Position numbers and translations under genes: made by a program
In this document: positions 6,249-32,309 of the stretch, piece after piece
How the letters are laid out: every line of letters begins with the position of its first letter
Numbering within the stretch: position 1 is the first letter of the stretch
From: an uncultured Candidatus Saccharibacteria bacterium
GTDB taxonomy: Bacteria > Patescibacteriota > Saccharimonadia > Saccharimonadales > 2-12-FULL-41-12
Assembly (NCBI GenBank): GCA_964573095.1
Contig: CAZNIK010000001.1
Location: forward strand, 313,004-377,003
Reading direction: 5' to 3'
DNA length: 64,000 nucleotides
The notes under the pieces: generated by a model
What the model saw: the letters and a program-made list of their open reading frames with translations, nothing else
Databases searched by the model: none
Told to the model about the DNA's origin: nothing

Positions 6249-7199
6249 ATGGAATCAAAGTCTTGGCACAACCCCGTCTTCAAAAAACTTGCAGCTTCTG
6301 AGCTGGGTGGAAGCGGTGGGCATACTTCTGGGATTGTGCCGATAAATAGTACCCGAAGCTATTTTGGAACACCCAAAAAGCCAGCGACGCACAAAATACA
6401 CCAAATTGTAATTGAGTTTTGGCACGACGATGCCAGTAAAACGATTACAACAAATGTGAACTATCATGTCGCACCGACACACCGCCGCCAATATCATGTT
6501 ACGGGTAATATTTTTCCTGCCTACAAGAAAGCTGGGGCCAAAGTTGGGGACATTGTGGTTTTCTGGAAATCACGGAATAACGAAAATGACTTTAAAGCAG
6601 AGCTTATTGCCAAGAATTCCGCACGTTGGATCGAAGCAGAAAAAAACGGCAGCAGCTTGTCTTCTAAAGGGGGCACACTCCGACTAAGCCCTCCTGGGTT
6701 GATAAATTCAATGGACTTTGCGGTTCTCGATGATACGAGTGATTATGCAATTGTCTCTGATATCGAAGACACGTTTACTGACAATAGCTTTCCGACGGTC
6801 CCGCGCGAAGGAAGAAAAAAGCAAGGTGAGAGATATGTGACCTATCGCAGTAAGCGAAAAGGAGATTACGCACTAAAAAAACAGGCTTACGTGTGTCAAA
6901 TTGAATCGAGCCACAAAACCTTCACAACCCCAGCCGGCGTTCCCTATATGGAAAAACACCACCTTATCTCAATGAAGTTTTACGAGGAGTACACCAACGA
7001 TCTGGATGATATCCATAATATCGTTAGCCTGTGTCCGACCTGCCACAGAAAAATTCACTACGGGAAAAAGTCGGAAGTTTCTGACATGCTTGAATTATTA
7101 TTCAAAAAACAAAGTCCAATGCTCGAACGTGCAGGCTTCTTCATCAGTTTGACGGAGCTCAAGAAAAAATACGGAGTAGGCTTACGTCCCCTTTTGTAG
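6249..7199 (+). CDS. Putative restriction endonuclease: EcoRII-N/B3-like DNA-binding domain plus C-terminal HNH nuclease
   Basis: The N-terminal FKKLAASELGGSGGHTSGIVPI resembles the EcoRII N-domain motif (K-L-S-A-N-D-T-G-x-x-G-G-H-Q-x-G-x-x-I-P, from memory). The C-terminus has HHLIS...N-x8-LCPTCHRKIH (HNH). It is convergent with, and overlaps, an m5C methyltransferase gene. Confidence 0.7.
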   Translation: MESKSWHNPVFKKLAASELGGSGGHTSGIVPINSTRSYFGTPKKPATHKIHQIVIEFWHDDASKTITTNVNYHVAPTHRRQYHVTGNIFPAYKKAGAKVGDIVVFWKSRNNENDFKAELIAKNSARWIEAEKNGSSLSSKGGTLRLSPPGLINSMDFAVLDDTSDYAIVSDIEDTFTDNSFPTVPREGRKKQGERYVTYRSKRKGDYALKKQAYVCQIESSHKTFTTPAGVPYMEKHHLISMKFYEEYTNDLDDIHNIVSLCPTCHRKIHYGKKSEVSDMLELLFKKQSPMLERAGFFISLTELKKKYGVGLRPLL

Positions 7200-8237
7200 G
7201 CGAGGGCTGTTGGTAAATAGAGTTTCGAGCACGCTTTTTGCAACGTTAAGCGTTATTGCGTTGCCGGCCTGTCGATAAAGCTGTGTGTCAGAAACGCCGA
7301 CTTTCTGAGCCTTCTCAGCAAAAGAATCATCAAATCCCTGCAAACGAAATGCTTCTTTTGGTGTTAATTTTCTGATTCTATCGTGACCATTTTGGGCGGG
7401 TAGTACCTTTTGCCCATCAAACGCGCCTTGAATAAAGTTGTCAGAATAATAGTTATCTTGATTGGCTCTGTGCATCTTATGCATCGTTGCCGTAAGTGGT
7501 CTGGCGTGAATTCTGTTAATTTCTGATTTCGAATAATAGCCACCGCTGCCGTGTTCCAAAATGGTTTTTATCATTTTTTTTGAAAGGTAATATTTTTCAT
7601 CCACTTCGCGCTCCAAAAGATGCCACACAGTTTTGTACTGAGTTTTGCTGATTGGCTGATCAAATTGAGCATTAGAAATATAACGGAAATCTTTTTTTCT
7701 TTTGACGCCAATAAAGTAGAGTCTCCGTCTGTGTTGTGGCACCCCAAAATCAATACTATTAAGAAGCTCGGTTCTCAAGTTATAGCCAAGTTCCTCAGTT
7801 AATATTTTTACTATTCTCTGGTAGGTTTTGCCTTGGTCGTGCGTTTTTATTCCCCTCACATTCTCCAAGATGAAAAAGTCTGGTTTTTTTACCGACAGAA
7901 TCTTTGCTATTTGGAAAAATAATGTGCCTCGGGCGTCTTCAAAACCGGCCTTGTCTCCCATTAAGCTAAAAGGCTGGCAAGGGAAGCCTGCAAAAAGTAC
8001 ATCAAATTGTGGAATACTTTTTATGTCCGCCAAGGAAAGTTTAGAAATATCACCGATTGGCACCTCGTTTTTATGAAGTCGAAAGTTCGCATGATAGGTT
8101 TTCAGTGCGTGGGCATCTATCTCACTAAAGCCAACGCATTCTGTCGCAAACCCAATATGTTTTGCTGTTTGCTCAATCGCGGCGCGGAACCCGCCAACAC
8201 CTGCAAACAAATCTACATACCGAATTGGCTTTGTCAT
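7182..8237 (-). CDS. DNA (cytosine-5)-methyltransferase (M2)
   Basis: Motifs I DLFAGVGG, IV GFPCQPFS, VI ENV, VIII QHRRRLYFIG and X GNAITLNV. I prefer the ATG at 8237 (MTKPIRY); the track start at 8285 overlaps the upstream gene. Confidence 0.9.
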   Translation of the reverse strand: MTKPIRYVDLFAGVGGFRAAIEQTAKHIGFATECVGFSEIDAHALKTYHANFRLHKNEVPIGDISKLSLADIKSIPQFDVLFAGFPCQPFSLMGDKAGFEDARGTLFFQIAKILSVKKPDFFILENVRGIKTHDQGKTYQRIVKILTEELGYNLRTELLNSIDFGVPQHRRRLYFIGVKRKKDFRYISNAQFDQPISKTQYKTVWHLLEREVDEKYYLSKKMIKTILEHGSGGYYSKSEINRIHARPLTATMHKMHRANQDNYYSDNFIQGAFDGQKVLPAQNGHDRIRKLTPKEAFRLQGFDDSFAEKAQKVGVSDTQLYRQAGNAITLNVAKSVLETLFTNSPRLQKGT

Positions 8238-8244
8238 GGCTCTA

Positions 8245-9402
8245 CTATACCAACCTTTCCATAAGCTTTTTTGCAATAAGCTCACTTAACAGAGGTGGTA
8301 CTGCGTTACCGATTTGGTTGTACCACTGAGAGTATGGCCCCTCAAAAATATAGTCGTCTGGGAAGCTTTGAACTCGAGCCGCCTCTCTGGGCGTAAGGCC
8401 ACGCGCTTCGTAAGGATGAATGTACATGTTACAGTCAAATTTCATGTGGGAAGTGATTGTTTTGCACACTTTATTGGGATCAAGTTTAAAATATTTGTCT
8501 TTGAATATATGCGAACGACTTTTATAAGGCATTATGTGAGCAATGCTTTGGTGGTCAGATTTTCCACCTGGCGGTAAAAGTTTATAGATTTCCAGATCAC
8601 GAGGGTTGTTATATCGCGCCTTATGATTATAGGCGTACAGAGGGGGGGTGCCATGATTGATCCTCGCAATGTAGTTATTTGGCGGTGAGCGTGAAAAGAT
8701 TTTGTCCTTAAAAAACCCACTGTGGGCTGCTTCAATACTTGTATTGCCCTTTTCTCGCCTTGCCGATAGCCTTCTTAGTCCCCACAGTGCGTCTTTGAGG
8801 GGGACTACAGTGGCTGTCTTGGCGCGCTCAATGTCTACGAAAAGCTGACGCAATTGTTGACGAGGATTTGGTAGTTCATCCTTCTTGATGCCAATGTATA
8901 TAAGCCGTTCACGATTTTGCGGTATGCCATAATCTTTGGCGTTTAAAACAACATAATCTGCCATATACCCAATCGCATTAAATGCATCCACCACCACCGG
9001 TGCCACCGACAGCATTCCCTTGACGTTTTCCATAAGAATAATCTTAGGCTTTGTTATTTCAATCGCGTTGATGAATTTTTTAAATAACACATTTCGCGGA
9101 TCATTCAATAAGCGCTGACGGTTGGCCATGCTAAAGCCTTGACACGGTGGCCCACCAACTACAACTGAGATATTGGTTTTCCGCAGTATATCTGTATGTT
9201 TGTCGATAAAATCATCAATATCACTATGGATAATTTTTTCTGCGTTTGCCAAGGGGTGGTTTTTTCGATAGGTAAGGACCGAGGAGAGATCGTTGTCATT
9301 TGCCAAAAAAATCTCAAAACCAGCACGACTAAACCCAAGAGACAGCCCACCGGGACCACAAAATAAATCTACAACAAGAGGTTGTTTTGTTTTTTTCGTC
9401 AT
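8245..9402 (-). CDS. DNA (cytosine-5)-methyltransferase (M1)
   Basis: Motifs I DLFCGPGG, IV GGPPCQGFS, VI ENV, VIII QNRERLIYIG and X GNAVPPLL. Confidence 0.9.
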   Translation of the reverse strand: MTKKTKQPLVVDLFCGPGGLSLGFSRAGFEIFLANDNDLSSVLTYRKNHPLANAEKIIHSDIDDFIDKHTDILRKTNISVVVGGPPCQGFSMANRQRLLNDPRNVLFKKFINAIEITKPKIILMENVKGMLSVAPVVVDAFNAIGYMADYVVLNAKDYGIPQNRERLIYIGIKKDELPNPRQQLRQLFVDIERAKTATVVPLKDALWGLRRLSARREKGNTSIEAAHSGFFKDKIFSRSPPNNYIARINHGTPPLYAYNHKARYNNPRDLEIYKLLPPGGKSDHQSIAHIMPYKSRSHIFKDKYFKLDPNKVCKTITSHMKFDCNMYIHPYEARGLTPREAARVQSFPDDYIFEGPYSQWYNQIGNAVPPLLSELIAKKLMERLV

Positions 9403-27051: not shown

Positions 27052-29103
27052 ATGAAGATAAACTGGATAGAAATCGATAATGTAAAAAGCTTTAAGTCTA
27101 AAGTTAAAGTACAACTAAATTCTGATCACAATTTTGTTGTGGGCACAAACGGTAGTGGCAAGACTACCTTGCTGCAAGTGTTGAGCAGCTGTCTGCTTGT
27201 CTTGGTACCGCTTAGACGCACAAAGTCAGAATCTCGTGGTAACGAAAAGTGGCTTACATTTGAGACGCCTCCACACAATGTAATATTACCTAGAAACTTT
27301 GAGCGACAAGGAGATAATCAAACTATACGACTTGAAATATCGTTTGAGTCATCAAAAGACGGACTCATAAGTGAGCTTGAAAAATATCAAGCAGCATTTA
27401 GTGATAACAAAGAGTATCTGCGTAGCAAATTTTTAGATTTAGAGGGACTTTTATCAGAATTCGACAGTTATCTTGCTGCTTTAAAGGGATATAGCAGCTA
27501 TGTGTATACTTTTGATTTTTATGTTGACAGCAATTCTGGAATCGTCAGTCTTACTGGTGAGTCGCGCCAAAACAATAAAGGTATTCTAGATATTTTGGAT
27601 AACCTTGAGATCTTCCGACAAATTTATGATCATTTATTTAAGGCCGGAAAGGCGACAGAGGTCGTTACTCGAGGTTTCCAAATAATTTATTTGAATGCTG
27701 ATAGACTTATTGGTTTTCCAGCAGAGGTGCCTCAAGTTAGAGGAAATTTAGATGAATACTTTATAAACTCGTCATATGGGCAAAGAGCTAATCTTACAGG
27801 CAATATTTATTCCAATAGTAGCTTTAATTATATAGACCAAACGCTAACATCCATCGCAGAGGAACACTTCCATAGGAAATGGGACTTGCAGGATGCTGAA
27901 CCACTTGAAAATATAAAACAGTATACGGACTTGAAAGCTCGAATAAAGGATATTTTAGGCCTTGATTTTGGACTTGAAATATCACCACTAATTAACGAGC
28001 CTATCAAGCCTTATTTCCTTTGTGATGGTAACAAGATTTATTTTGATCAATTTAGTAGTGGCGAAAAGAGCTTAATCTACCTTTTGTTTACTCTTGCCAA
28101 TTCAGATATACAAAACTCATTTATCCTCATTGACGAAGCCGAAATACACCTGCACGGTAATATGCAGGACAAGTTATTATCAATTTTATATGAATTTAAA
28201 GAACTGAATAATCAACATTTTATAACCACGCACTCCCCGAAATTGATAAATAAACTAACCATATCCTCTGTCTTGCGATTCTATAAAACTGAAGGATCTA
28301 CTCAACATATAAACTTTAGGAATGACACGAATCAGCGTACAGATTACGATATTATTCGACTAATAAATAGCCAAAACAACGAAAAAATATTTTTTGCGGA
28401 TAAGGTCGTACTTGTCGAGGGCATTAAGGATCGAATTCTAATCGAAGCGATCATAAATCAGGTTAATGATACGAAAGAAATCATAGAAGTAATTGATGTA
28501 GGTGGCAAATTAAACTTGAGCTTTTATAGAGACTACCTTGAAGAGATCAAGGTATCTAACTACACACTTTCCGACTTCGATTACCTATACGATATCTGTA
28601 AAAAAGAGCTTGGCTCACTATTTGTCACAAGTAACAGTAAAATTGATGCCATTATTAAGCACAAAAAATCAGAGGACAGAAAAACACTGATAGATGCTAT
28701 GGAAGGCTTTGTATCGAGCAATGATAAAACCACTTTAAATAAAGTCACTGACTACCTTAAAACCAGGGGAATAGTCTTGAAAGATAATCTTAAGAAAGAA
28801 GAAAAAGTGTTATTAACAAACACCATTGATAAATTGAGAAGTAACAATATCTATATAATCTCCGCAGGGTTACTGTCAGATAAATCTAAATATTCTGGAG
28901 AGATTGAAGACTATTTACAGTATATTCAAACAAGCAAAAATCGAGACGATTCTATATCCAATCTCGTCAAATACATATCGAAAGATAACTTTGTAAACGC
29001 AATGGTAAAAAAATTAGAAACTAACGTTGCCGAGGAATTACTTGGGTTTATTGCTGCGGTTGTCTACAACGATGTAAGTAGAGGCTCGGACCTTATTAGG
29101 TAG
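27052..29103 (+). CDS. OLD-family ATP-dependent endonuclease (ABC-type ATPase plus Toprim)
   Basis: Walker A GTNGSGKTT, signature/Walker B FSSGEKSLIYLL...FILIDEAEIHLH, and C-terminal Toprim motifs VVLVEGIKD and DFD. Strongly AT-rich. Confidence 0.8.
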   Translation: MKINWIEIDNVKSFKSKVKVQLNSDHNFVVGTNGSGKTTLLQVLSSCLLVLVPLRRTKSESRGNEKWLTFETPPHNVILPRNFERQGDNQTIRLEISFESSKDGLISELEKYQAAFSDNKEYLRSKFLDLEGLLSEFDSYLAALKGYSSYVYTFDFYVDSNSGIVSLTGESRQNNKGILDILDNLEIFRQIYDHLFKAGKATEVVTRGFQIIYLNADRLIGFPAEVPQVRGNLDEYFINSSYGQRANLTGNIYSNSSFNYIDQTLTSIAEEHFHRKWDLQDAEPLENIKQYTDLKARIKDILGLDFGLEISPLINEPIKPYFLCDGNKIYFDQFSSGEKSLIYLLFTLANSDIQNSFILIDEAEIHLHGNMQDKLLSILYEFKELNNQHFITTHSPKLINKLTISSVLRFYKTEGSTQHINFRNDTNQRTDYDIIRLINSQNNEKIFFADKVVLVEGIKDRILIEAIINQVNDTKEIIEVIDVGGKLNLSFYRDYLEEIKVSNYTLSDFDYLYDICKKELGSLFVTSNSKIDAIIKHKKSEDRKTLIDAMEGFVSSNDKTTLNKVTDYLKTRGIVLKDNLKKEEKVLLTNTIDKLRSNNIYIISAGLLSDKSKYSGEIEDYLQYIQTSKNRDDSISNLVKYISKDNFVNAMVKKLETNVAEELLGFIAAVVYNDVSRGSDLIR

Positions 29104-29287: not shown

Positions 29288-29476
29288 ACACGCCCGAAAT
29301 TAGTGTCTTTTACAGATTGGCTGCAAAGAAAAAGGACGCCGAAGCGTCCGAAATTTCCCAAATGGTGCCAGATAGCGGACTTATTGCTAACTATAAATCA
29401 CAGTAACGTTGACAGCTACAAGCTAAGGGGACTAGTTCAGCAGTTCAACCTTGCTGGCGATTTGATAGCACCTTGA
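29288..29476 (+). repeat. Junction repeat copy C (left arm + core + right arm)
   Basis: Contains the exact 20-mer AATGGTGCCAGATAGCGGAC (29361-29380). The left arm is homologous to copies A and B, with a 24-nt hairpin insertion. Confidence 0.7.
29303..29476 (+). CDS. Small conserved ORF (57 aa from GTG), paralogue C
   Basis: ...WCQIADLLLTINHSNVDSYKLRGLVQQFNLAGDLIAP. It aligns without gaps to the ORF at 30817-30960, with many synonymous differences. The start codon is uncertain and there is no clear SD. Confidence 0.35.
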   Translation: MSFTDWLQRKRTPKRPKFPKWCQIADLLLTINHSNVDSYKLRGLVQQFNLAGDLIAP

Positions 29477-29553
29477 TATAGATTCAAGTAGAATAGATGT
29501 ATAGGTGAGCTGGGAAGTCTGGTCGGCGCTTATTTTTTAATGCAAGGACTTCT

Positions 29554-30765
29554 GTGAAAGAAAAAGTAAAAAACCTAGCTCTCAAACTCCACCCGAAACG
29601 TGTAGCGACTTTATTTGATACATTTCTGAAAGATGAATCTATCGGCGGGAAGTTGATTCTTGTTGCTGCGTTGCTCTCTTTGATTGTCGTAAACTCGCCA
29701 CTTGCTGATGAGTTCAATACCTTTTGGCATACCCAGCTTTCAATCGGTATGGGTAGTTGGAGTTTGTCTCTTGATTTAAGACATTGGGTCAATGAGGGTC
29801 TTATGGCTTTCTTTTTCTTGGTAGTAGGTTTGGAAATTAAACGTGAACTTGTTAAAGGGGAGCTAAGAGATGTGAAGACTGCAGTCCTGCCGATAGGTGC
29901 TGCCGTCGGCGGAATGTTAATCCCCGCATTCATATATTTACTCTTTAACTTTAATACGGAAGCCGTCCAAGGCTGGGGCATACCTATTGCAACCGACATA
30001 GCGTTTGCCGTAGCAGTACTTTCGTTACTAAGCAACCGAGTGCCTGTACCTTTAAAGATATTCTTACTTACTCTTGCCATTGCTGATGACATAGGTGCTA
30101 TTTTTGTCATCGCCTTATTCTATGCAGAAATCATAAATTATTGGTATCTTGCTGCTTCGTTCCTGCTAGCTATTGGTATTTTCTTATTTAGGAAACAACT
30201 AACTTACCGCATTTTTATAGTGAGCTTACTTGGCGTTCTTCTATGGGTTACTACACATCTTTCAGGAATACACGCCAGCATTGTAGGTGCGGTTATGGGC
30301 TTCTTAGCACCAGTCGCAAGGTCTAATGACAAAGTGGGTGTTTCAGAAAAAGTTGAAAAACTGTTCCTGCCAATAACCACATTCTTTGTTTTACCAGTTT
30401 TTGCCTTCGCTAATGCGGGTTTCCCGATTAGTGCGAATGCATTAACGTCCAACCAATCCGTGTTATGGGGAGTTATCTTTGGGTTAGTAGCTGGCAAAGT
30501 TATTGGCATAACTCTGGCTTCTTGGTTGCTCGTCAAACTTAAGGTAGCGAAGTTGCCAAACGGCGTATTGTGGAAACATATTATAGGAATTGGCTTTATT
30601 GCAGGTATCGGCTTTACCGTTTCAATTTTTATAACTGAACTAGCTTTTTCAGATAGCCAATCGTTAATAAACACTGCGAAGATAGGTATATTTATTGCTT
30701 CGGCAGTTAGCGCATTGCTTGGCTACGCAATTTTGCGACTCACACGTTCTCGCCAAATTAATTAA
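29554..30765 (+). CDS. nhaA: Na+/H+ antiporter NhaA
   Basis: 403 aa, about 11-12 TM segments, NhaA signature GIPIATDIAFAVAVL. GTG start. Confidence 0.9.
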   Translation: MKEKVKNLALKLHPKRVATLFDTFLKDESIGGKLILVAALLSLIVVNSPLADEFNTFWHTQLSIGMGSWSLSLDLRHWVNEGLMAFFFLVVGLEIKRELVKGELRDVKTAVLPIGAAVGGMLIPAFIYLLFNFNTEAVQGWGIPIATDIAFAVAVLSLLSNRVPVPLKIFLLTLAIADDIGAIFVIALFYAEIINYWYLAASFLLAIGIFLFRKQLTYRIFIVSLLGVLLWVTTHLSGIHASIVGAVMGFLAPVARSNDKVGVSEKVEKLFLPITTFFVLPVFAFANAGFPISANALTSNQSVLWGVIFGLVAGKVIGITLASWLLVKLKVAKLPNGVLWKHIIGIGFIAGIGFTVSIFITELAFSDSQSLINTAKIGIFIASAVSALLGYAILRLTRSRQIN

Positions 30766-30775
30766 CATTATGTTT

Positions 30776-30960
30776 GAGTCCTTTTTGAGTTGAACGATAA
30801 AACACCGATTTTCTCGGTGCTTAACAGATACAGTAGCTTGCAATTTCAATGGTGCCAGATAGCGGACACATTTCTAACACTTAATCCCAGCAATATAGAC
30901 AATTACGAGCTCAAACATCTCGTAAATGAGTTTAATCTTTCTGGCAGTTTTATATTATAA
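30776..30960 (+). repeat. Junction repeat copy A (left arm + core + right arm)
   Basis: Exact 20-mer at 30848-30867. The left arm is roughly two-thirds identical to 31533-31611 by hand alignment. Confidence 0.7.
30817..30960 (+). CDS. Small conserved ORF (47 aa from GTG), paralogue A
   Basis: ...WCQIADTFLTLNPSNIDNYELKHLVNEFNLSGSFIL. Same frame and length as paralogue C from the W codon onward. The stop codon directly abuts the CIRCE element. Confidence 0.35.
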   Translation: MLNRYSSLQFQWCQIADTFLTLNPSNIDNYELKHLVNEFNLSGSFIL

Positions 30961-30987
30961 TTAGCACTCTTGACACGAGAGTGCTAA
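30961..30987. promoter_or_regulatory. CIRCE element (HrcA operator) TTAGCACTC-N9-GAGTGCTAA
   Basis: Exact match to the CIRCE consensus half-sites with a 9-nt spacer, 75 nt upstream of hsp20. Confidence 0.85.
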
Positions 30988-30998
30988 TTTTCTAAAAT
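30970..30998 (+). promoter_or_regulatory. Sigma-70-type promoter TTGACA-17 nt-TAAAAT for hsp20
   Basis: The -35 hexamer lies inside the CIRCE spacer and the -10 element follows the right half-site. Confidence 0.6.
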
Positions 30999-31061
30999 CA
31001 AGATAGAAGCTAGTTATGCTTCTCTAAGTAAGTTACTAATAATAACGAAAGGAGAAATATA

Positions 31062-31493
31062 ATGAGTAATCTTACTAGATGGGACCCTTTCGCAGAGCTG
31101 AGCGCTTTGCAAAAGCAATTTTTTGGTGATGACTGGATGACACCATTCAAGGGCGTAAACATACCTACTACGGACGTCTATACAAAAGATAACCAGCTTA
31201 AGGTTGAAGCTCACTTGCCAAACTTTGAACAAGACGATGTAAACATTCAGGTAGAGAACAACGCACTTGTTATAAGTGCCGAACGACACGAAAAAGAAGA
31301 GGATAAGGATAAGAAGTACGTGGTTCGTGAAAGCTCTAGTAGCTTTTACCGACGCATTGCACTACCAGATAGGGCTGATACAGATAAAATTGAAGCCAAA
31401 CTGGATGATGGCGTTCTTAAGGTAAGCGTACCATTAACACCATTACCAGAACCCAAGAAAATTGCTATCGCTGCTTCAAATAAAAAGAAGTAG
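31062..31493 (+). CDS. Hsp20/alpha-crystallin small heat-shock protein
   Basis: 143 aa with an ACD pattern (...VDVYTKDNQLKVEAHLPNF..., GVLKVSVP). Strong SD AAAGGAGA. Confidence 0.92.
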   Translation: MSNLTRWDPFAELSALQKQFFGDDWMTPFKGVNIPTTDVYTKDNQLKVEAHLPNFEQDDVNIQVENNALVISAERHEKEEDKDKKYVVRESSSSFYRRIALPDRADTDKIEAKLDDGVLKVSVPLTPLPEPKKIAIAASNKKK

Positions 31494-31515: not shown

Positions 31516-31546
31516 AAAGAGACTCTTTATTTGAGTCTCTTTTGAG
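31516..31546 (+). terminator. Rho-independent terminator after hsp20
   Basis: AAAGAGACTC-N7-GAGTCTCTTT followed by a T-rich run. Confidence 0.7.
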
Positions 31547-31611
31547 TTTGACGGAAAAGCACTAATTTCATTGGCGTTTAACAGATGAGCAATATCAGAA
31601 ATCAATGGTGC
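31533..31611 (+). repeat. Junction repeat copy B (left arm only, fused to the tRNA-Gly 3' end)
   Basis: Homologous to 30776-30856. Homology ends at CAATGGTGC, and TGGTGC is the complement of the tRNA-Gly GCACCA terminus. Confidence 0.65.
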
Positions 31612-31682
31612 GGGTGCGGGGACTCTAACCCCGGGCCTCATCCTTGGCAAGGATGCGCTCTAAACAACTGAGCTACACCCGC
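31606..31682 (-). tRNA. tRNA-Gly (GCC), CCA encoded, atypical D-loop and T-loop
   Basis: Hand-folded. Acceptor GCGGGTG/CACCCGC; anticodon loop TTGCCAA. The D-loop is AGTTGTTTA (no GG) and the T-loop is TTAGAGT (A at position 56). Confidence 0.85.
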
Positions 31683-31799: not shown

Positions 31800-31822
31800 T
31801 GGTGGTGATGAGGGACTCGACC
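31800..31822 (-). pseudogene. 3' fragment resembling the tRNA-Val T-arm, acceptor and CCA
   Basis: TGGTGGTGATGAGGGACTCGACC versus the tRNA-Val 3' end TGGTGGGTGATGAGGGACTCGAACC (two 1-nt gaps). No 5' half lies adjacent. Confidence 0.5.
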
Positions 31823-31931
31823 TTAACCCGTAAAAATTGCTTTTTGCTTGGTTCACTCGGCTTCCGTGGTCGCCGAGCAAGGGCGGCTGAGTGCCACCGG
31901 CACTCGCGTTCGATTCCAAACAAATAACTCT

Positions 31932-31970: not shown

Positions 31971-32046
31971 GGTGGGTGATGAGGGACTCGAACCCCCGAC
32001 CCCCTCGGTGTAAACGAGATGCTCTAGCCAACTGAGCTAATCACCC
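31970..32046 (-). tRNA. tRNA-Val (TAC), CCA encoded
   Basis: Hand-folded canonical cloverleaf; anticodon loop TTTACAC. Confidence 0.9.
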
Positions 32047-32186: not shown

Positions 32187-32233
32187 CCCCTCGGTGCAAG
32201 CGAGAGGCCAGCACCAACCAAAGCGAATCACCC
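32187..32233 (-). pseudogene. tRNA-like 5' fragment (acceptor 5' strand to anticodon arm, loop CTTGCAC)
   Basis: The minus strand reads GGGTGATTCGCTTTGGTTGGTGCTGGCCTCTCGCTTGCACCGAGGGG, which parallels tRNA-Val positions 1-43. No T-arm or 3' acceptor follows. Confidence 0.4.
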
Positions 32234-32309
32234 AAGAACAAGAAACAACAGACGTTATAGTAGCAAATACCCCTGTTTTTTTCAAACTAATTGCCGTTAG
32301 TTGAAGCTG

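Follow-up and report, generated by a model that had tools for sequence, protein, structure and literature searches.

Among described mobile elements, the closest in working mode to the arrangement reported here would be, by analogy, the arrays of staphylococcal cassette chromosome mec (SCCmec) and Enterococcus cassette chromosome elements, which are mobilised by the CcrAB large serine recombinases (LSRs) (PMC6222049). Tandem accretion of integrative elements is also known at transfer RNA (tRNA) genes, for instance in the tycheposons of Prochlorococcus (bioRxiv 10.1101/2020.12.28.424599). Here we analyse a stretch of 64,000 nt (hereafter the window; contig CAZNIK010000001.1, positions 313,004 to 377,003) from an uncultured Candidatus Saccharibacteria bacterium of the Saccharimonadales, in which an earlier examination of the letters alone (the sequence-only reading) had noticed two small open reading frames (ORFs) inside a pair of repeats. 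We put at roughly 60% the probability that these ORFs are 3'-terminal modules of an LSR gene, placed at a TGGTGC core and bounding two cassettes, one with nhaA and one with hsp20, that are stacked at a tRNA-Gly(GCC) gene.

A repeat search of the window showed that positions 29361–29467 and 30848–30954 form a direct repeat of 107 nt with 71% identity and no gap, in line with the indel-free alignment reported earlier for the two copies. The 20 nt that open the repeat are identical in both, and a 19-mer, ATGGTGCCAGATAGCGGAC, occurs twice in the 64 kb, where 0.01 occurrences are expected. The ORFs that carry the W-C-Q-I-A-D frame span 29303–29476 and 30790–30960; within them the two copies themselves are open for 36–37 codons, and their ends differ by at most one codon. 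Tail module A, as we term it (29363–29476, + strand), comprises the TGGTGC core, 37 codons (WCQIADLLLTINHSNVDSYKLRGLVQQFNLAGDLIAP) and a stop; tail module B (30850–30960, + strand) comprises the core, 36 codons (WCQIADTFLTLNPSNIDNYELKHLVNEFNLSGSFIL) and a stop. In the 30 codons past WCQIAD, our recount agrees exactly with the earlier one: 15 codons encode the same residue and eight of these differ at synonymous sites only. Mismatches between copies A and B number 9, 6 and 16 at codon positions 1, 2 and 3, respectively, and the Nei–Gojobori method gave 12.5 synonymous differences over 21.3 synonymous sites and 18.5 non-synonymous differences over 83.7 non-synonymous sites (dN 0.26, dS 1.14, dN/dS 0.23; binomial p = 0.014 for the synonymous excess). 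Stops, which the sequence-only reading had seen on the opposite strand, are present in all five alternative frames. Judged on these counts, the selection signal to be had from the window pair alone is modest, and the decisive data are those of the family.

Homologues were collected from Saccharimonadales/Patescibacteria, giving 29 DNA copies and 84 protein clusters. A genome scan with an 18-mer returned ten matches, of which three were true homologues in metagenome-assembled genomes of Saccharimonadales (L001, L002 and L010) and seven were chance matches in unrelated phyla; loci L011–L016 came from a metagenome scan with the back-translated peptide. A first protein search with the small ORFs gave no match and the subsequent profile search gave short proteins only, namely nine 'hypothetical proteins' whose contigs supplied further loci. 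Scans of viral contigs yielded no relatives. An exhaustive hidden Markov model (HMM) search of 1.84 billion proteins returned the 84 clusters, each of at most 169 aa, in which the motif lies at the C-terminus or a few residues from it and the N-terminal extensions are arbitrary. Column entropy at codon positions 1, 2 and 3 was 27.7, 18.2 and 40.5 (16 sequences), and the median pairwise dN/dS of the family was 0.215, whereas the two shifted frames gave 1.05 and 1.41. Across 15 sequences a single in-frame stop was counted, compared with 20–68 in each of the other five frames, and 25 copies could be aligned over 111 columns with zero indels. The stop codon itself falls at codon 35–38 in 24 of the 28 evaluable tails. 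Since entropy follows the order 3>1>2, dN/dS is low and indels are absent, the sequence has evolved as protein-coding DNA. Purifying selection at the protein level, as claimed from the two window copies, thus extends to the family as a whole, and the homologues do not show the pattern of frame-breaking indels or stops, or of a missing synonymous excess, that would have spoken against it.

At its beginning, the module is conserved beyond what the protein requires. Over the first ∼33–36 nt from the core (TGGTGCCRGATAGCSGACnnATTTCTAACY) there is almost no variation at synonymous sites, and codon 7 always keeps the same third base even though its residue varies (V, L, I, T or A). The onset of this conservation is abrupt at TGGTGC, and it is also present in the loci found by a degenerate peptide pattern. 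One might therefore ask whether conservation resides in DNA or RNA only, whether as an attC-like hairpin, as a minus-strand tRNA-like or antisense RNA, or as a cis-regulatory leader of nhaA or hsp20. Besides the nucleotide-level conservation of the first ∼36 nt, the minus-strand end of the element (...CUGGCACCA, followed by a terminator) and a terminal pairing of GCCAGAUAG with CUAUCUGGC in some copies speak for such a reading. However, RNAalifold with 25 sequences found no conserved pairs on the + strand and three trivial ones on the − strand, single-sequence folds were no better than shuffles (z −0.7 to −1.7), Rfam (including a scan at E ≤ 10) and ARAGORN were negative, and the acceptor-like terminal pairing is missing in about half of the copies. 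In addition, the hsp20 promoter lies downstream of copy B, and neither the 3>1>2 order of codon-position entropy nor a dN/dS of 0.2 is attributable to RNA structure. Conservation in DNA or RNA alone is contradicted for codons 13–36 and, as an account of the whole module, is scarcely credible; the first ∼36 nt, taken as a DNA-level site, stay within the best explanation.

Several specific candidates of this kind were rejected. A leader or riboswitch of nhaA or hsp20 has no Rfam match, the hsp20 promoter and CIRCE operator are downstream of copy B, and the neighbours of copies elsewhere are usually convergent. The acceptor-like pairing, the ...GGCACCA end and the terminators on the minus strand had suggested an RNA of that strand, but a tRNA-like RNA, an antisense small RNA and a type I toxin–antitoxin system all founder on the lack of conserved structure and on inconsistent pairing, and the terminators make better sense as a component of the cassette left arm described below. 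An integron attC site was discarded as no conserved hairpin was found in 25 copies and, by direct reading, the candidate RYYYAAC/GTTRRRY boxes are not complementary. A mini-ORF in frame B (NTG-GTG-CCA...) with a frameshift was also dropped, its stop being not conserved.

The tails lack, as far as their sequences tell, the conserved initiation codon and ribosome-binding site of a free-standing gene. In 15 of the 29 copies the frame is unreachable from any upstream ATG, GTG or TTG: 12 have no such codon in the stretch that leads from the last in-frame stop to codon 1 (in three of them this stop is only two codons upstream), and in three further copies codon 1 itself is TAG or TGA. Direct reading of the family sequences revealed no Shine–Dalgarno sequence, and 22 of 29 copies have an intrinsic terminator for the opposite strand at 3–41 nt upstream. 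Both window copies follow non-coding sequence and a terminator, and their frame meets a stop 25–32 codons up. The in-frame GTG at 29303 and the missing Shine–Dalgarno sequence are both as the sequence-only reading stated, and its doubt over the true start was well placed, given that no start codon is conserved across the family. At least 84 clusters of hypothetical proteins of 31–169 aa (P0001–P0088) are gene-caller artefacts in which a start-less tail is joined to an arbitrary upstream start; in a few database members the tail is fused to unrelated read-through sequence.

The recombinase link was reached only through N-terminally extended matches of the exhaustive search and their contigs. 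The extensions of P0045 and P0087 are homologous to each other, and their contigs led to a locus, L030, that encodes an LSR of 534 aa with the Pfam domains Resolvase (2.4e-13), Recombinase (3.4e-15) and Zn_ribbon_recom (7e-5). This protein ends in ...DLWCTIVDVFQTSAIAAVNDYKLKHLVEQFQLADNLI before its stop codon, its final stretch being ...NYEDDSKNDL-WCTIVDVFQTSAIAAVNDYKLKHLVEQFQLADNLI. The element DNA profile matches the last 106 nt of the LSR gene (E 3e-10), and alignment of the small-ORF profile with LSR residues 500–534 by hhalign gave a probability of 97% (E 3.5e-11, 49% identity). With the L030 LSR as a tblastn query, copies were matched through residues 500–534 in every element-bearing locus, both window copies included: tail A through residues 500–534 (E 1.4e-4) and tail B through residues 473–534 (E 6e-6), the corresponding nhmmer values being 4e-27 and 2.8e-24. 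A further locus, L029, holds an LSR 3' remnant of 122 residues that includes the tail. LSR genes are found 0.6–4 kb from tails in two unrelated locus groups, L017–19 and L030–34. The L017 enzyme has 24% identity to that of L030, and its ORF stops two codons past TTGGTGCG (L017 2355–2372); downstream follow a cargo gene, a terminator and, 640 nt downstream, a TGGTGCC-tail. A PDB sequence search with the L030 LSR gave no match at E ≤ 1e-3.

On this homology, each small ORF repeats the 3'-terminal coding module of an LSR gene, namely its last ∼36 codons and stop. Descent from such a segment explains the coding signature as well as the presence of a conserved stop without a start. Hence the two 'paralogous small ORFs' of the sequence-only reading are not separate genes but two copies of a recombinase-gene 3' end, and the alternative which it had left standing, 3' remnants over intact genes, is the one favoured by the homology to the LSR C-terminus and by the lack of a conserved start. 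The notion of a 3' remnant from a large non-recombinase gene was superseded by the same homology.

On a different account of the open frame, each cassette would encode a free micro-protein of 33–37 aa, for instance a regulator or an accessory or directionality factor, whose translation would begin at codon 4, a non-canonical start, or at upstream starts that vary. The ORF is maintained across the family, and codon 4 is nearly always ATA, with no free variation (ATA in 22 copies, ATT in three, ATG in one and ATC in one); GGTG could serve as a weak Shine–Dalgarno candidate for a codon-4 start. Members P0029, P0034, P0038 and L017 have ATG at codon 4 (MSDVFQT...), and L002, P0035 and P0056 have ATG directly before the W codon (MWC...). 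Nevertheless, these residues lie within the 534-aa ORF of the intact LSR, where codon 4 is ATC, and neither a Shine–Dalgarno sequence nor a promoter is conserved. In 22 of 29 copies the opposite-strand terminator lies just upstream. Bacteria that have been characterised initiate very inefficiently at ATA. Constraint on a DNA site would explain the invariance of ATA equally well, since synonymous sites nearby are fixed too, as is the third base of codon 7. We consider the micro-protein improbable.

The homology to the LSR C-terminus also bears on the suggestion, made weakly in the sequence-only reading, that the ORFs encode AlpA/Xis-type helix-turn-helix excisionases beside an att core. Position next to a recombination core would suit such a gene, and by eye YKLKxLVxQFNLSxDL can be loosely likened to an HTH_17-type domain from helix 1 through the turn into the beginning of helix 2. 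Against this, neither small ORF matched a Pfam family at E ≤ 10 and a PDB profile search with the small ORF found no relevant match. AlphaFold2, run on an 11-sequence alignment, predicted two helices only (residues 2–10 and 18–34; mean pLDDT 63, pTM 0.29), and Foldseek comparison of this model with the PDB returned 0 matches, a weak negative with a model of such low confidence. Moreover, 36 aa are too short for the winged-helix fold of Xis. The excisionase assignment did not survive these comparisons, and we regard it as highly improbable.

The sequence-only reading had placed the ORFs beside an att-like core, and homology breakpoints support TGGTGC as a recombination junction: in four independent comparisons, homology breaks at or within 2 nt of it. 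First, the LSR 3' region of L030 recurs there as a 229-nt inverted duplicate, 98% identical, which ends exactly at TGGTGC; all four mismatches lie in its first 20 nt, and beyond the core it continues into a different tail (...LWC, then DKLSNQLTSRAIELEQNVSFQELVDSLSLNGELLSV and a stop). Second, L034 and L030 are 100% identical over 3954 nt, up to the C of TGGTGC, and the L034 tail beyond the shared segment is only ∼78% identical to the other tail of L030. Third, L028 carries the hsp20 cassette of the window, with homology that begins at window position 30852, at most 2 nt from codon 1 of tail B; there, the W codon of the tail is TAG and the left flank is unrelated to nhaA. The Hsp20 proteins of the two loci are 100% identical (dS 0.61), their CIRCE/5' untranslated regions differ at 4 of 101 nt, and their tails show dN 0.19, dS 0.82 and dN/dS 0.23. 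Fourth, the left arm of tail B (30773–30849) recurs at 31530–31605, there set against the 3' end of tRNA-Gly(GCC). This 3' end, GCACCA, reads TGGTGC on the + strand (31606–31611), and the same 6-mer opens both tail modules. In L021 the array meets tRNA-Gly in the same way, and two copies of TGGTGCGG flank a 107-nt insert there. Homology between loci therefore breaks at one short shared core, as would be expected of an att site, and we consider it very probable that the small ORFs are LSR tail modules at a recombination junction.

Two of these loci deserve separate mention. The recombinase segment at L030 1932–6309 and L034 1–4111 has 229-nt inverted terminal duplications ending in TGGTGC, with different outward-reading tails, and its identical 3954 nt are joined to another tail in a second sample; either inversion (tail switching) or insertion in one or the other orientation would fit this structure. 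In L021 (3030–3150), TGGTGCGG is an 8-bp direct duplication flanking the 107-nt insert. Situated directly 3' of tRNA-Gly(GCC), this insert includes a terminator, shows homology to the left arms of L022-740 and L013-2998, and resembles a cassette that is minimal or has been emptied.

In the window, the core and tail modules delimit two single-gene units. Read from right to left, the order is tRNA-Val, tRNA-Phe, tRNA-Gly, core, left arm, hsp20, tail B and core, and beyond that core left arm, nhaA, tail A, core, a left arm with terminator and an OLD nuclease gene. Cassette 1 thus consists of tail A, nhaA and a left arm with terminator, and cassette 2 of tail B, the CIRCE-hsp20 unit and a left arm with terminator. 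The cargo of cassette 1 (29554–30765, + strand) is an NhaA Na+/H+ antiporter gene (PF06965, E 1.9e-132), for which an exact-protein lookup gave no record. That of cassette 2 (30961–31493, + strand) is hsp20 (31062–31493), preceded by a perfect CIRCE operator (TTAGCACTC-N9-GAGTGCTAA; 30961–30987) that overlaps a strong sigma-70-like promoter (TTGACA-17-TAAAAT; 30970–30998). The left arm of junction A (29296–29362) contains GTGTCTTTTAC and an intrinsic terminator for the − strand at 29334–29349 (GGACGCTTCGGCGTCC, then a T run). The left arm of junction B (repeat D3, 30773–30849) has its minus-strand terminator hairpin at ∼30801–30821 and is conserved upstream of the tail module in L012 (three copies), L014, L013 and L022. 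A second such arm (D3', 31530–31605), 75% identical to 30773–30829, has no tail module and adjoins the 3' end of the tRNA-Gly(GCC) gene (31606–31682, − strand; 3' end GCACCA), which in our proposal anchors the array to the chromosome. The unit conserved in one subfamily reaches ∼90 nt to the left of the core, terminator included.

Similar arrays were detected with the DNA profile in eight of the fetched related loci (L001, L010, where the second copy is weak, L011, L012, L013, L021, L022/23 and L025), with two or three same-strand copies spaced 0.8–2.7 kb apart. The cargo between copies includes SDR, TauE-like, NUDIX, glyoxalase, RibD_C, S51 peptidase and ABC transporter genes and domains of unknown function (DUFs), in addition to the NhaA and Hsp20 of the window. 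Cargo genes occur in either orientation, and the stop of an opposite-strand cargo gene lies within ∼20 nt of the tail stop or overlaps it.

Other features surround the array. Just right of tRNA-Phe, at 31800–31825, there is a partial tRNA-Val 3' end, GGTGATGAGGGACTCGA, that is identical at 17 of 17 positions to 31975–31991, and right of tRNA-Val, at 32187–32237, degenerate repeats of the tRNA-Val 5' half occur (D5, D9 and D15). Rfam found no extra tRNA at the partial tRNA-Val copies, which look like footprints of past insertions at tRNA-Val. Directly left of the array, a single gene on the + strand (27052–29103) encodes an OLD-family ATPase/TOPRIM nuclease (Pfam AAA_15 and OLD-like_TOPRIM; PADLOC Old 2.5e-28, AriAB 1.7e-27), while nearly all other genes nearby are on the − strand; possibly it represents an older cassette that has lost its tail. 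Further away, region 6249–9402 holds two adjacent C-5 cytosine DNA methyltransferase genes (7182–8285 and 8245–9402) beside a divergent ORF (6249–7199) with a weak match to a type IV methyl-directed restriction enzyme (E 6e-9).

How such cassettes might move can be sketched as follows. An LSR acting in trans would recombine at the TGGTGC core, with the first ∼33–36 conserved nt serving as its half-site, so that the cassettes would be non-autonomous elements comparable to SCC elements without ccr. After insertion, the minus-strand terminator of the left arm would terminate the tRNA operon or minus-strand cargo. Where a tail comes to adjoin the LSR-carrying segment, it would be read as the C-terminus of the recombinase, and a cassette whose tail is broken would thereby disable the very enzyme on which its movement depends. 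That tails are kept open by such reuse is suggested because premature stops occur in two of 28 tails whereas an in-frame stop appears within 27 codons in 20 of 29 adjacent left arms, and because dN/dS is 0.23 in the hsp20-cassette pair; we rate this tail-reuse mechanism at slightly under even odds. A fuller version, which we offer tentatively, is an LSR family whose core lies ∼36 codons before the end of its own ORF, with small non-autonomous cassettes that each bring an intact, selectable replacement tail and a terminator and form integron-like arrays at tRNA-Gly; recombination would then re-tail the enzyme and couple cassette fitness to enzyme integrity.

As regards the function of the tails, inert fossils are the main rival to reuse, and the micro-protein from codon 4 is a lesser one. 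According to the fossil explanation, the tails are inert 3' pieces left by integration at an att site inside an LSR gene and subject to decay since then, and the selection signature records past divergence of the recombinases. The absence of a start codon, the three copies with a stop at codon 1, the lack of an LSR in the window and a resemblance to the split int genes of SSV-type elements agree with this, as do individual decayed copies: L011-5746 has an internal stop, L021-1191 is degenerate and two copies run past the usual stop. On the other hand, dS exceeds 1 between most copies, and unconstrained AT-rich sequence should by then show frequent stops and indels. Instead, the stop at codon 35–38 is retained in 24 of 28 tails, 25 sequences are indel-free, premature stops are rare in tails and common in the adjacent arms, and the orthologous hsp20-cassette pair keeps its low dN/dS. 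Pure fossils therefore appear unlikely, more so than reuse of the tails.

A number of points weigh against the interpretation of the ORFs as LSR tail modules of stacked cassettes. Canonical serine integrases recombine only attP with attB, and repeated insertion at one site needs a promiscuity like that of Ccr or TnpX. No Resolvase or Recombinase domain was found in the ∼30 window ORFs scanned, which means that any enzyme acts in trans or has been lost; likewise, tblastn of two LSRs against the window matched the tails only, with no intact recombinase gene contiguous with them. L030 is the only intact LSR with a contiguous tail that was recovered, and the exhaustive HMM search gave no long protein. 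The tails of L030 and L034 lie outside the 100%-identical mobile segment, and thus may be element-borne or target-borne. In L017, the LSR reads TGGTGC in another frame and so would not be joined in frame to the nearby tail, which may reflect a frameshift, a different subfamily or a tail-less state. Finally, when tested by shuffling, the left arms showed no significant similarity to the part of the LSR coding region that precedes the core. The 11-mer GTGTCTTTTAC (29303–29313, the site of the GTG) is identical to the VSFT codons of the L030 recombinase, a marginal match that 24 of 500 shuffles equal in score. Descent of the left arms from LSR coding sequence was rejected, tblastn extensions being suggestive but the DNA-level similarity not significant, and is kept as a hint only.

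Classical mobile elements seem scarce in the streamlined genomes of Saccharimonadales, and little is understood of how accessory genes enter them; the window region itself consists mostly of co-oriented housekeeping genes. The present data point to a cassette platform of single accessory genes with module borders of ∼110–190 nt, a tRNA anchor and a link to an LSR, whose cargo ranges over an ion antiporter, a small heat-shock protein, a nuclease, hydrolases and transporters. Either TGGTGCCRGATAGCSGACnnATTTCTAAC or the 36-aa motif can serve as a sequence tag for locating such arrays in metagenomes. For annotation, dozens of public 'hypothetical proteins' of 31–169 aa are mis-called start-less tails. 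If tails are indeed reused, the recombinase would be an unusual one whose C-terminus is exchanged by its own reaction, of interest to mobile-element biologists and to engineers of serine integrases, and the whole would be a self-referential cassette system undescribed for serine recombinases. We found no description of a recombinase-derived coding 3' end maintained in recombinase-less cassettes in the searchable literature, which is weak evidence of absence, and no relevant match for Saccharibacteria with integrons or serine recombinases.

The arrays resemble integrons in that mostly single, unrelated accessory genes lie between repeats of ∼100 nt in one orientation and the recombinase is not encoded by the cassette. 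Unlike integrons, there is no attC hairpin and there are no R''/R' boxes; the repeat is coding and related to a serine rather than a tyrosine recombinase, and cargo stands in either orientation with its own promoters and terminators. Crossover within a coding sequence has precedents: SSV1-type integrases are split by their own attP, and mycobacteriophages with integration-dependent immunity have attP in the 3' end of the repressor gene. As here, a start-less downstream part is separated from the gene body or swapped onto it. Those systems, however, use tyrosine recombinases and one att pair per element, and to our knowledge they include no arrays of intact spare 3' ends on non-autonomous cassettes. 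C-terminal segments are switched in shufflon-type systems, such as R64 pilV with Rci, and in tail-fibre inversion by Gin and Cin. The L030 locus, with its inverted 229-nt duplicate that ends at the core and is followed by an alternative C-terminal segment, is reminiscent of these, and so are the start-less alternative tails; by contrast, the protein to be re-tailed would be the recombinase itself, and the window copies are direct rather than inverted.

Tycheposons share with this locus the successive insertions at one tRNA gene that push older elements outward, the islands of cargo punctuated by att repeats and the degenerate remnants without an integrase, but their repeats are partial tRNAs and their recombinases mostly tyrosine recombinases (10.1101/2020.12.28.424599). 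Here, the tRNA shares no more than 6 nt (GCACCA) with the repeat, which itself encodes a recombinase tail. SCC elements likewise involve LSRs, an att core inside the 3' end of a gene with a copy of that 3' end at the element boundaries, variable cargo, elements without a recombinase and composite tandem arrays bounded by direct repeats (PMC6222049). They differ in that their target is the host housekeeping gene rlmH and their repeat measures ∼50 bp (PMC6222049), whereas the 3' end repeated here comes from the recombinase gene family itself, extends over ∼110 nt (36 codons) and is apparently kept open by selection; moreover, the anchor is a tRNA-Gly 3' end and the cassettes are of single-gene size (0.8–2.7 kb). 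What appears to set the Saccharimonadales arrays apart from all the systems compared is therefore a repeated coding 3' end that derives from the recombinase family itself and is apparently kept in cassettes that carry no recombinase.

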